Source: an uncultured Alistipes sp. (GTDB lineage: Bacteria > Bacteroidota > Bacteroidia > Bacteroidales > Rikenellaceae). Taken from it: 63,336 bases of DNA. Both the position numbers and the translations under genes were made by a program. The notes beneath the pieces were generated by a model that was not told where the DNA came from, did no database searches, and saw only the letters and a list, made by a program, of their open reading frames with translations. The stretch spans positions 1 through 63,336 of the forward strand of contig CAZHMX010000001.1 of assembly GCA_964533725.1 (NCBI GenBank), written 5' to 3'. Of the stretch, positions 6,221 to 47,865 are shown piece by piece; within the stretch, counting starts at the first letter, position 1, and each line of letters opens with the position of its first letter.

Positions 6221-8442
6221 AACGGCGGATCCTTCATACAGCAGCCGTGGCAGCAGGAATCCTCCTGCTGCTGTGGCTCTTTTGCCTGCCGCGGGACCTG
6301 TTCGAAAACACGCCTTATTCGACCGTCGTCACCGACCGCCACGGGCATTTGCTGGGGGCGCGCGTTGCTGACGACGGACAGTGGCGCTTCCCGTCGGGCG
6401 ACTCGCTGCCGCAAAAATTCGTCGCGGCACTCATCGAATTCGAGGATCGCACCTTCTATCGGCACCTTGGCGTGAGTCCGAGAGCCATAGCTCGTGCCGC
6501 CGTGCAGAACTTCCGCAGCGGCCGGGTAGTCAGCGGGGGCAGCACGATCTCGATGCAGGTCATCCGTCTCTCGCGACAGAAGCCGCGCACCCTGTGGCAG
6601 AAGGTCGTCGAGGTATTTATGGCCACCCGCCTGGAGGCCCACTATTCCAAAGAGGAGATCTTGCGGCTCTATGCCGCGCACGCCCCCTTCGGCGGTAATG
6701 TCGTGGGCATAGACGCGGCCCTGTGGCGCTGTTTGGGCAACGACGGCAGCGAACTCTCCTGGGCCGAGGCCGCGACACTGGCCATCCTGCAGAACGCCCC
6801 CTCGTCGGTCCACCTCTCCCGCAACCGCGATGCCCTGCTCGCCAAACGTAACCGCCTGTTGCGCCGGCTTTGCGAGCAAGGCTACCTCTCCGAACCGGAA
6901 TACGAACTCTCGGCCGCAGAGCCGCTGATCGGCGAGCCTTGTCCGATGCCGCAATATGCACCGCACCTGGTCGAGCATTGCCATGCCCTCCGCCGTGGCG
7001 AACGCACCCGCACGCAGGTCGACCTGCCGCTGCAAAGACGGCTCGAAGAGGTCACCGCCCGATGGAGCCGGGAGCTGTCGGCCGAGGGGGTGAACGACCT
7101 TGCGGCCGTCGTCGTCGAGGTCGGGAGCGGCGAAGTGGTCGCCTACTGCGGCAACAGCGACATCCTCCGCGAGCGTGAAGGCCGGTGGGTCGATATTGCC
7201 CGGGCGCCCCGCAGTTCGGGCAGCATCCTCAAACCGCTGCTCTACTGCGCCGCACTGCAGGAGGGCCTCCTGCTCCCGCAGATGCTGCTGCCCGACATCC
7301 CTACCGACTTCGGCGGCTTCGCACCCAAAAACTTCGACGGAACCTTCGCCGGAGCGGTTCCGGCCGACGAGGCCCTGTCGCTTTCGCTTAACGTGCCGAA
7401 TGTGCATCTGCTCAAAGAGTACGGAACGATGCGCTTTGCCGAACTGCTCCGGTCGGCAGGCCTCACCTCGATCGGCAAAGCCGACAGCCGCTATGGCCTG
7501 TCGCTCGTATTGGGCGGTGCGGAGGTGCGGCTGCTCGAGATGGTGCGGCTCTACGCGAATATGGCGGCCTGCTATCAGGGCGGCGACAGCGTCCGGCTCG
7601 CCCGCTTCCCGCTCACCGACCGCGCGGCACTCTACGCCACCTTCGAGGCGATGCGCAACGTGAACCGCCCCGACCGGATGGACTGGCGGCGGGCTACATC
7701 CGCGCGGCAGATCGCATGGAAAACCGGCACGAGCTACGGCTCGCGCGACGGCTGGGCGGTGGGTGTCACGCCCGAGTATGCCGTCGGCGTATGGGCCGGC
7801 AATGCCAGCGGCTCCTCCGCGCCCGACCTGACGGGAGCACGCACCGCAGGTCCCGTGCTTTTCGACCTCTTCAACCTGCTGCCTCCGACGGGCTGGTTCG
7901 CCGAGCCGGATGCCGCCGACGGCATCGAAGCGACGCTTTGCCGCCATTCGGGACATATCGCGGGCCGCAACTGCACCGAAACCGTGCAGGCCGTCGTGCC
8001 GAAAAACGCACTGAAAAGCCGTTCCTGCCCCTATTGTCAGGAGGTGGTTGCGACAGACGGCAGCGAAACGGAACGCCGCTTCGTGCTGCCGCCGGTGATG
8101 GAGCATTACTATCGGCAGACGCATTCGGCCTACCGGTCTGCGACCTTGTCAACGGCCCGGACCGCCGCCCGTGCCGATATCCAGCCCATGCGCTTTATCT
8201 ACCCGGCGGACGGGAACGTGGTGTCGCTGCCCCGGCAGGCCGACGGCACGGTGGCGGCCCTCAACTGCTCGGTGGCGCACAACGACCCCTCGACAGAGCT
8301 TTTCTGGCACCTGGACAACTCCTACCTCGGCTCCACGCGCGACATCCACCAGATGGCGGTTCCCCTGAACAGCGGCGTTCACCGCATCACCGTCATAGAC
8401 TCCCGCGGCTACGAACAGACCGTCTCGGTTGTTGTCGTATAA
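6217..8442 (+). CDS. pbpC: Penicillin-binding protein 1C
   Basis: Transglycosylase motifs EDRTFYRHLGV and GGSTISMQ; transpeptidase motifs SILK and KTG; classic partner of A2M; ATG at 6217. Confidence 0.93.
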   Translation: MKRRILHTAAVAAGILLLLWLFCLPRDLFENTPYSTVVTDRHGHLLGARVADDGQWRFPSGDSLPQKFVAALIEFEDRTFYRHLGVSPRAIARAAVQNFRSGRVVSGGSTISMQVIRLSRQKPRTLWQKVVEVFMATRLEAHYSKEEILRLYAAHAPFGGNVVGIDAALWRCLGNDGSELSWAEAATLAILQNAPSSVHLSRNRDALLAKRNRLLRRLCEQGYLSEPEYELSAAEPLIGEPCPMPQYAPHLVEHCHALRRGERTRTQVDLPLQRRLEEVTARWSRELSAEGVNDLAAVVVEVGSGEVVAYCGNSDILREREGRWVDIARAPRSSGSILKPLLYCAALQEGLLLPQMLLPDIPTDFGGFAPKNFDGTFAGAVPADEALSLSLNVPNVHLLKEYGTMRFAELLRSAGLTSIGKADSRYGLSLVLGGAEVRLLEMVRLYANMAACYQGGDSVRLARFPLTDRAALYATFEAMRNVNRPDRMDWRRATSARQIAWKTGTSYGSRDGWAVGVTPEYAVGVWAGNASGSSAPDLTGARTAGPVLFDLFNLLPPTGWFAEPDAADGIEATLCRHSGHIAGRNCTETVQAVVPKNALKSRSCPYCQEVVATDGSETERRFVLPPVMEHYYRQTHSAYRSATLSTARTAARADIQPMRFIYPADGNVVSLPRQADGTVAALNCSVAHNDPSTELFWHLDNSYLGSTRDIHQMAVPLNSGVHRITVIDSRGYEQTVSVVVV

Positions 8443-45297: not shown

Positions 45298-45597
45298 TTA
45301 TCGGTTGTTGCCCGTCAGTTTGCTTTTGGGGGTGTACTGGTTGTGCCCCTCGGGGTTGTTGACCTGGCCGGTGCGGCCCGACGAGGCGCAGGTGCTGCCG
45401 CTGCGCTGGTTGGTCGTTGCGGTGCCGGTGCCACGGCTGCCCGAATTGTTGGAGATGCGGCCGTTGCTGGCCTCATTTTTGACGCCCGTGCTGCGGCTTG
45501 TGCCCGACGTACGGGTCGAGGCTTGGGCTTTGACCGAGCGGGAGGAACCGCTGCGCAAACCGGTTTTGGTCTCTTTGGTGTCTTTGATCTCTTTCAT
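45298..45597 (-). CDS. Small hydrophilic low-complexity protein
   Basis: 99 aa rich in S/T/G/N/R; AT-rich sequence before the ATG; host-like codons; ends with NNPEGHNQYT. Confidence 0.65.
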   Translation of the reverse strand: MKEIKDTKETKTGLRSGSSRSVKAQASTRTSGTSRSTGVKNEASNGRISNNSGSRGTGTATTNQRSGSTCASSGRTGQVNNPEGHNQYTPKSKLTGNNR

Positions 45598-46217: not shown

Positions 46218-47666
46218 ATGGCTTACGAAATATTTATCAGCTACCGGCGAAGCAACGAGCAATTGTGGACCAACGGCACGGAGATCGCCCGATCCATAAA
46301 ACAGCAGCTCGAACTGTGCGGGTATCGCGGGCGCATCTTCTTCGATTACAGCGTCGAGGAGATGGACGATTATTTCGAGACCGTCATCCTCTCCAGTCTC
46401 GAGAAATGCAAACTGTTGATCCTGGTGCTGTCGCGCGACTCGATGGGGCGCGTCGTGAACGACGGGGACTGGGTGCGTCGCGAAGTGTTGCGTGCCAAAC
46501 AGTGCGGGTTGAAGATTATCCCCGTCGACCCCGACAAACAGTTCGACGGATTTCCGGCCGGACTGCCCGAGGAACTCTCTTTCCTGCCGCGTATACAACG
46601 CACGGTAATTCATATGGACGAGGGTTTCGAGAATGATATCGACCGACTTATCGAACGCAGAATCAAGGCGGTAGTGCCGCCGTCGGGGACGTCGTATTGG
46701 GGCCGCTACGGGACGACTATCATTAGTGCGATCGTTGCGGTGGGTGTCGTTATGGGCTTTGCGTTGTTTCGGTCCACAGCGGATCCGAGTCTCACGCCGA
46801 CTACAGAATCCGATACCGAGGTGTTAGCCGACGGGAATGTTACTCCGGGATCTTCGAACCAAGAGAAGCCCTCGTCCAAGGTGAACCACCAAGAGGAATT
46901 CGCCGATGCGCAACGGAAGAAAGATGAAGAGGCCAAACGTCAACAGCAACTCGAGGAACAACGGAAGAAGGAAGAGGAAGCCAAGCGCAGTTCGGCCTTG
47001 AATATCGAGATGGTCTATGTCGCTGGCGGAACGTTTATGATGGGCGCATCTTTATATGATCCGGGGGCTTACGGTGATGAGAGACCTGCCCACAGCGTTA
47101 CGTTGTCGGGCTATTATATCGGGAGGTACGAGGTTACGCAGAAGCAGTGGGTGAGGATAATGGGTTCGAACCCGAGCAGATGGAAAGGCGATAACTTACC
47201 TGTGGAGAATGTAAGCTGGGAAGATATTCAGGAATTTCTTCGTAAGCTGAATGCGAGGACGGGAAAGAACTATCGTCTGCCGACGGAGGCGGAATGGGAG
47301 TTTGCGGCGCGCGGTGGCAACAGCAGCTGTGGTTACAAATACAGCGGGAGCGATAATATCGGTAATGTAGCGTGGTACAAAGACAACTCCGGTTCAAAGA
47401 CACATCCGGTAGGCACCCAATCTCCGAATGAGTTAGGGATTTATGATATGGCGGGAAACGTTTATGAGTGGTGCCAGGATTGGTACGATGGTTACAGCAG
47501 TGCGGCGCAGACAAATCCCACGGGTCCGTCCTCGGGTGCTCTCCGCGTGCTCCGCGGTGGTAGTTGTTTCAACTACGCAAAGTACTGCCGTGTTTCGAGC
47601 CGGTACGACTACGCGCCGGGCAGCAGGTTCATCAACTGCGGCTTTCGCCTCGCGACCTCTCTTTAG
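46218..47666 (+). CDS. TIR domain - transmembrane helix - FGE-sulfatase (C-type lectin fold) protein
   Basis: TIR: IFISYRR...WVRRE...IIPV; TM: IISAIVAVGVVMGFALF; FGE: GGTFMMG, YEVTQ, RLPTEAEWEFAARGG, PNELGIYDMAGNVYEW, RGGS...GFR. Confidence 0.9.
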   Translation: MAYEIFISYRRSNEQLWTNGTEIARSIKQQLELCGYRGRIFFDYSVEEMDDYFETVILSSLEKCKLLILVLSRDSMGRVVNDGDWVRREVLRAKQCGLKIIPVDPDKQFDGFPAGLPEELSFLPRIQRTVIHMDEGFENDIDRLIERRIKAVVPPSGTSYWGRYGTTIISAIVAVGVVMGFALFRSTADPSLTPTTESDTEVLADGNVTPGSSNQEKPSSKVNHQEEFADAQRKKDEEAKRQQQLEEQRKKEEEAKRSSALNIEMVYVAGGTFMMGASLYDPGAYGDERPAHSVTLSGYYIGRYEVTQKQWVRIMGSNPSRWKGDNLPVENVSWEDIQEFLRKLNARTGKNYRLPTEAEWEFAARGGNSSCGYKYSGSDNIGNVAWYKDNSGSKTHPVGTQSPNELGIYDMAGNVYEWCQDWYDGYSSAAQTNPTGPSSGALRVLRGGSCFNYAKYCRVSSRYDYAPGSRFINCGFRLATSL

Positions 47667-47865
47667 TTTGTTTGGAGTATATCCAATCCGCAACTTAAGC
47701 TAAAAAGAAGAAATGAGGTCTCGTGACCGCTGTGTACATCAGGCATGCGGCTGTCCCGATGCCGAATAAGCGCGGCTTTCGCAAGAGTCTGTAAATTTCA
47801 TCCTCCGTGATCTGCGGGGCGCTGTTGCCGATGGTGTGCGGGCGGGGCGGCCGGAGCGCAAGGAT

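Follow-up and report, generated by a model that had tools for sequence, protein, structure and literature searches.

Targets of the TvpA type are surface lipoproteins. In the Treponema denticola DGR, TvpA combines a formylglycine-generating enzyme (FGE)-type C-type lectin (CLec) fold with a C-terminal variable region (VR) (2Y3C; PMC4891356; architecture C of PMC5758913), and the same system has several remote targets and an HRDC gene that overlaps the reverse transcriptase (RT) gene. Non-adjacent targets were recorded for 45 of 372 DGRs in PMC5758913, where HRDC cassettes are also described and where nine FGE targets combine Toll-like receptor, NTPase and other domains. Remote CLec paralogs and TIR-like domains are reported from cyanobacteria (PMC7517822), and multicellular bacteria are described as carrying TIR effectors on CLec sensors with activity in trans (PMC10907252). 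Together, these TIR-FGE/CLec targets (b7-b11 of Wu 2018, PMC5758913; PMC7517822; the clade 5 conflict systems of PMC10907252) join a TIR domain to a diversified CLec domain that has been proposed to act as an antigen sensor, and their dispersed paralogs are diversified in trans. The gene described here resembles them in all of these respects; however, the published proteins often occur with STAND/NACHT NTPases or in ternary systems of multicellular bacteria, whereas the present gene, from a gut Alistipes, has no NTPase and encodes a lone TIR-membrane-CLec protein. The TIR-CLec target class and remote targeting are already published; the new parts are the membrane-receptor form in Alistipes and a covarying primer site. 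Hypermutated TIR sensors have been described mainly from multicellular bacteria, and this gene extends the idea to a single-celled gut genus. The main text of a preprint on Bacteroides DGRs (10.1101/2024.11.15.621889) contains no mention of TIR, HRDC, Alistipes or remote, and PMC8144416 contains none of TIR.

The window analysed is a stretch of 63,336 nucleotides from an uncultured Alistipes sp. (contig CAZHMX010000001.1), in which the target gene occupies positions 46218..47666 on the forward strand, as do all of its features given below. Domain searches and a structure model (mean pLDDT 86.7) resolve the 482-residue product into a TIR domain, a membrane helix, a linker/coiled coil and an FGE-type CLec domain; domain matches comprise TIR_2 over residues 5-108 (E 2.6e-6) and FGE-sulfatase over residues 264-479 (E 1.4e-51). 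A single membrane helix is predicted at residues 166-184 (46713..46769) from hydropathy and from a helix at 160-183 in the model, and a second model helix at residues 224-259 (46887..46994) forms a charged stalk that is probably a coiled coil. The CLec domain (47004..47663) has TvpA (2Y3C) as its nearest solved structure, both by sequence search (E 3.3e-42) and by fold comparison, where it ranks first with an rmsd of 1.7 A. It differs from TvpA in that proteins of this type have a TIR domain at the N-terminus, with or without a membrane helix, and in that the cognate template repeat (TR) was not found in our searches. Identity as a formylglycine-generating enzyme was judged by the presence of two active-site cysteines together with the enzyme's insertion, and was rejected, as the alignment to FGE (6S07) is gapped at the motif and has a single Cys in register. 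There is no complete DGR cassette at the locus, where the neighbours are small ORFs, an rpsT-like gene and tRNA-Glu. Upstream of the target, a 99-residue ORF rich in Ser, Thr, Gly and Asn (45298-45597, reverse strand) adjoins a gene for a 147-residue secreted repeat-domain protein.

The VR comprises 37 codons (47541..47651), about 14 of which are rewritten AAC-type codons. The initial annotation had listed 16 NNC codons near the 3' end as candidate sites of mutagenesis; all 16 are present and end in C. Of the pyrimidine-ending codons, 22/29 have C as their last base in the last 37 codons as compared to 40/91 upstream, a bias that is modest by itself at 60% GC. A whole-genome BLASTn of the tail, proposed as a way of finding a non-coding copy beside an RT gene, returned no such copy but did return two other genes that share the tail. 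These are unlinked paralogs on other contigs, C152 (525 aa) and C20 (498 aa), both of which encode TIR and CLec domains without the membrane helix (hydropathy peaks of 1.26 and 1.09, versus 2.32 in the window protein). Their blastn identity to the 3' end of the window gene is 83.6% over 226 nt for C152 and 79.7% over 227 nt for C20, and the stretch common to the three copies consists of the last ~135 coding bases and ~35 non-coding bases behind the stop. Fourteen of the 16 listed codons differ among the copies, the second CTC and the GGC being constant, and in all 14 main variable codons positions 1 and 2 change while position 3 stays C. Four extra codon positions also vary (GCA/GCG, AAG/AGG, GCG/ACG and AGG/GGG). 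Sorted by codon position 1/2/3, variable sites number 13/11/3 in the 111-nt VR; a block of 384 nt further upstream in the same domain has 10/15/58 (p from 7e-5 to 1e-6 in pairwise comparisons). Variation is concentrated at columns that are adenine in the TR, with columns defined not from the cognate TR but from seven homologous ones, which mismatch these VRs at 9-28 non-A positions: 22/30 such columns vary as compared to 5/81 of the others (Fisher p 3e-12). In three of these five, one copy or more has an A, which is compatible with a template adenine; the remaining two changes occur in the window copy alone. The adenine-column bias among the three tail-sharing copies bears out the earlier proposal for the 3' end of this FGE-fold gene, and confirms that it is a VR written by a DGR. 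Third-position differences are few in the VR (1-3 of 37 codons) and many upstream (25-49 of 128), which indicates that, once the genes had diverged, a shared source overwrote their scaffold.

Complete versions of this anatomy occur in relatives. Among 375 congeners, 60 have a similar CLec (FGE) gene and nine have an HRDC-type DGR RT with at least 51% identity to the RT of genome G003; where inspected, the cassettes are ordered target-HRDC-RT-TR, the HRDC gene overlapping the RT gene as in Treponema. The congener targets are kinase-membrane-CLec or secreted proteins, and seven cis targets differ from their own intact TR at 12-23 adenines and 0-3 other sites. Genome G038, which belongs to another family, has the order targets-TR-HRDC-RT, with an RT frame that is interrupted in its assembly, and has the same TIR-CLec architecture as the window gene together with its template: this remote target differs from a TR on another contig at 13/31 adenines and 0/74 other positions. 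One remote target in G003 mismatches at 19/29 A versus 2/76 non-A positions and lacks the downstream element considered below, and five more TIR-CLec homologs with VR-like tails were found in metagenomes. Several loci show displaced or altered templates. G003 has extra TR copies without an RT beside remote targets (L084 and L086; C39 1098 and C41 4040), one identical to the cassette TR and the other mutated like a VR in its 3' half. The TR at L081 (G141 C31, ~7990-8110) carries VR-like substitutions and a frameshift and is apparently an overwritten or decayed template, and at L090 (G279 C59, 7663) a CLec gene has a VR-like end followed by a TR-type flank in direct orientation, resembling a fusion of template and gene.

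We favour, with a probability of roughly 0.86, the reading that a trans-acting HRDC-type DGR wrote the three TIR-CLec tails from one TR, and that the window protein is a TIR receptor that would sense ligands in the periplasm. The initial annotation had proposed present or past diversification of the tip of a TIR receptor by a DGR acting in trans, and this stands on the shared tails, the adenine-specific differences and the matching DGRs in the genus. Since the mutation signature is common to two sister genes elsewhere in the genome, the window gene likely belongs to a set of three receptors that are rewritten remotely.

Searches of the window agree with the earlier statement that it holds no RT, avd or TR, and were extended to the whole assembly (1.98 Mb, 191 contigs, 82% complete). 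No cognate TR was found there by blastn, by motif scans or by an adenine-tolerant scan that covered every one of the 191 contigs on both strands; the best non-self matches of the latter were the two paralogs, followed by a candidate with 36 non-A mismatches. Nor was a DGR RT, HRDC or avd accessory gene found in this 82%-complete assembly. The sole RT it contains is not of the DGR type and was rejected as the writer, being a 577-residue retron Ec67-like RT fusion (L001; G000 C14, 26350-28083), and a weak HRDC match on contig C23 was rejected as an accessory gene, being a RecQ-like helicase. Larger collections were scanned with exact patterns, and near genomes may lie outside those collections: the VR/TR scaffold pattern had 0 matches in viral contigs and 0 in metagenome contigs, and the TR-plus-flank pattern matched two loci in genome contigs (both in one congener's DGR), 0 in viral and 0 in metagenome contigs. 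Blastn with two candidates scored per genome found no close TR among the 375 congeners, and blastn against phages and plasmids gave no match. In an exact cluster look-up in a protein collection, the window, C152 and C20 proteins were all singletons, and no orthologous strain variants were found.

There is about an even chance that, as a special case of the favoured reading, the window gene is a frozen relic with one fixed specificity, the DGR having been lost or this copy having moved out of its reach. The absence of any DGR part within 1.98 Mb agrees with this, as does the contrast between the 60 congeners with FGE genes and the nine with the matching RT type; in G138, which is 98% complete, a VR-like tail occurs without any match to the RT, and the TIR-CLec genes of G248 and G230 have tails that have drifted. 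The window copy itself has two private non-adenine changes in the VR, one of which turns a conserved Trp into Cys, three more in the otherwise invariant, IMH-like 3' end of the repeat (47640..47666), and a further one at the putative primer-pairing site; its distal hairpin (47719..47761; -9.9 kcal/mol) has decayed but is intact downstream of both paralogs (-18.6 and -19.6 kcal/mol). However, the assembly that lacks the DGR is only 82% complete and in 191 pieces, and the sister copies look fresh: C152 and C20 agree at every scaffold site and show no difference in the VR or 3' end that a template adenine would leave unexplained, although their upstream third positions differ at 25/128. This clean end beside a diverged upstream region indicates that C152 and C20 were rewritten recently; the last rewriting of the window copy probably lies further back.

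Behind the stop lies a weak TTGGA/TCCAA hairpin that had been noted before. It exists, but its reading as a hairpin is probably wrong and is rejected here because C20 breaks the hairpin yet keeps an inverted match to the TR flank. The hairpin falls within a stretch (47666..47700) that is homologous to the reverse complement of related TR 3' flanks and that we predict to be a primer-pairing site. In complete cassettes, the ~30 bp after the target stop are the reverse complement of the TR 3' flank, the mirrored stretch being the TR-flank loop from (G)CTTA to TAAAC. The inverted match covers 187/233 bases in 7 of 10 complete DGRs; in the remaining three it is confined to the first 6-11 bases, behind which comes a long inverted repeat. 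The flank of the genome's own TR scored best for 13 of 15 targets, a count that includes the G232 target, with 22 non-A mismatches to a TR that is not its cognate, and G141, whose TR is a frameshifted and partly mutated copy. None of 300 dinucleotide shuffles reached the observed score for each of the element-bearing targets of G003, G038, G195 and G393. All three copies in the present genome carry the element, with the G003 flank as their best match (scores 35, 39 and 31). The ~30 bp behind the VR are probably better read, on this comparative evidence, as a primer-pairing site than as a weak hairpin.

The best characterized precedent is phage BPP-1, where the spacer folds back on the TR and primes cDNA synthesis from A56, with the RNA remaining covalently linked (PMC6182149, PMC5703328). 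Naorem 2017 proposed that the BPP-1 primer pairs better with IMH than with IMH* and called integration unanswered (PMC5703328); both PMC5703328 and PMC12875486 treat the route by which the cDNA of a DGR locates and enters its target as an open question. The present element resembles BPP-1 in that the target sequence immediately past the copied region is complementary to the RNA primer, and more so than the template is (PMC5703328). It differs in that the BPP-1 paired stretch is short and gives way to a GC hairpin, whereas in the HRDC-type clade it is ~30 bp long and covaries across lineages. A control run on BPP-1 reproduced its short IMH/primer pairing. In the mechanism we propose, the template RNA would fold back its 3' flank and prime error-prone reverse transcription, with the RNA-cDNA junction predicted where the TAAAC motif of the flank ends. 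The resulting RNA-cDNA product would be colinear with the target's bottom strand, which would allow its RNA part to pair with the ~30 bp past the stop and its cDNA with the VR. The cDNA would then replace the VR, randomising ~14 AAC-type codons on the binding face of the CLec domain. No description of the long inverted match was found in the available text of PMC3240598, PMC5758913, PMC4891356, PMC12875486, 10.1101/2023.10.23.563531 and 10.1101/2025.03.24.644984, or in wider literature searches, although figures, supplements and subscription papers may hold one. In BPP-1 itself (L096, 3390-3462 versus spacer 1-56), spacer positions ~22-41 could also pair with the target hairpin, along its loop and 3' arm, and with the bases that follow, a complementarity that goes beyond the known IMH pairing (local score 30, reached by 2/300 shuffles).

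It is possible, though we consider it the less probable case, that the inverted match is a mere footprint without a role in recognition, left by primer RNA copied in during homing or by an old inverted duplication. The G003 remote target that lacks the element still appears diversified, the match is limited to 6-11 nt in three of the ten DGRs, and 17 of the 36 substitutions in the element are transversions. Against a footprint, the element covaries with the TR flank of each lineage (the 13 of 15 above), and its transitions favour changes compatible with G-T/U-G pairing by 15:4 (p 0.02, although the lineages are not independent and AT drift could contribute; C>T versus G>A alone gives p 0.09). 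Immediately past the shared end, the first base can pair with the predicted primer at the VR but not at the TR, which is the logic proposed for BPP-1 (PMC5703328). As a primer-complementary site, the element would account for the ability of a single DGR to reach remote genes with no strong hairpin, and the HRDC-type clade, offering a long site that covaries with lineage, makes the open question of cDNA targeting testable. If, more speculatively, each receptor is addressed through such a site, these ~30 bp would be what determines cDNA integration, a feature long sought, and could serve as a portable tag with which a DGR is aimed at any gene.

At the other end of the protein, the TIR domain (46224..46664; predicted cytoplasmic) resembles those of SARM1 and C. 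elegans TIR-1, which are its best solved matches in profile and single-sequence searches. A profile of 27 homologs matches TIR-1/SARM1 with E values of 2e-35 to 2e-31, versus 2.5e-4 for the next TIR, and the single sequence matches with E 6e-9. The DWVHKE motif of SARM1 aligns, and its Glu, the catalytic residue of SARM1, corresponds to Glu89 (46482..46484), invariant in 27/27 aligned homologs; the window protein has both the TIR fold and the Glu at the catalytic position that mark SARM1-like NADases. Unlike SARM1 and TIR-1, it lacks ARM and SAM domains, and its NAD+ hydrolase activity is putative. Because the TIR domain precedes the single helix, it is likely located inside the cell and the CLec domain in the periplasm. 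The protein would be a single-pass inner-membrane receptor in which binding of a periplasmic ligand clusters the cytoplasmic SARM1-like TIR domains and switches on NAD+ cleavage, the output being signalling or growth arrest and most likely defence; C152 and C20 would be cytoplasmic versions. The genome has seven TIR genes. Besides the window gene and its two paralogs, four (G000 C85, C71, C11 and C13) are lone TIR genes, one with a TIR-Lcl-like tail (328 aa) and three with a TIR-membrane-unknown domain layout, possibly a receptor family with homotypic TIR contacts.

A DGR target need not be an immune receptor, and it is conceivable, if not our preference, that the TIR domain serves as a scaffold or in metabolic signalling while the CLec domain senses envelope or host glycans or partner proteins. 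The same type of DGR in congeners targets kinase-membrane-CLec and secreted proteins, and the gene, a solitary one next to rpsT and tRNA-Glu, has no visible effector partner. PADLOC has no family for the window protein, which also has no system-model or partner-gene match among the described anti-phage TIR systems (Thoeris, TIR-SAVED and pAgo-TIR) and matches NCBIfam ThcB4 far below the cut-off (E 9e-4). This must be set against the invariance of the Glu at the catalytic position, the matches of the C152 and G038 proteins to defence-TIR models in PADLOC, and the modularity of the family, whose close TIR homologs are fused to exchangeable sensor domains that include Lcl_C, Sel1, PEGA, WG and FGE. 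For the preferred reading of a periplasmic-sensing receptor, lone TIR-membrane-CLec proteins are compact and suited to ligand and NADase work, although this copy may be frozen.

It is very improbable that no retroelement was involved and that ordinary gene conversion homogenised the tails while binding residues diverged under positive selection: the TR was not found and paralogs that are 75-76% identical across the CLec domain could recombine, but conversion would not spare exactly the TR-adenine columns (p 3e-12), position 3 remains C throughout the 14 main variable codons, the element downstream is an inverted match to a TR flank, and relatives show identical anatomy with a TR. More speculatively, the trans-acting DGR and its targets might amount to a Toll-like repertoire with somatic hypermutation in gut Alistipes and relatives, composed of lone SARM1-type NADase receptors, some membrane-bound and some cytoplasmic, with tips rewritten in trans and each addressed by a ~30-bp landing site that pairs with the RNA primer of the retroelement itself; taken as a whole, we regard this as unlikely.

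The same TIR family looks, judging from protein and template alignments, to be actively DGR-diversified through a second, Lcl_C-type fold in Bacteroidales populations. Ten TIR proteins (P0147-P0165) are nearly identical over residues 1-160 (98.6% mean identity), their Lcl_C-type tails are 67% identical, and at the 25 variable columns of these tails 247/250 residues can be encoded by NNC codons. Most of the variable columns are Asn in the TR-like frame of G038 C64. That contig (L045, 808-2394) and G273 C23 (L043, 1051-2448) hold avd-type DGRs whose RT ORF includes, in frame at its 5' end, an AAC-rich template.
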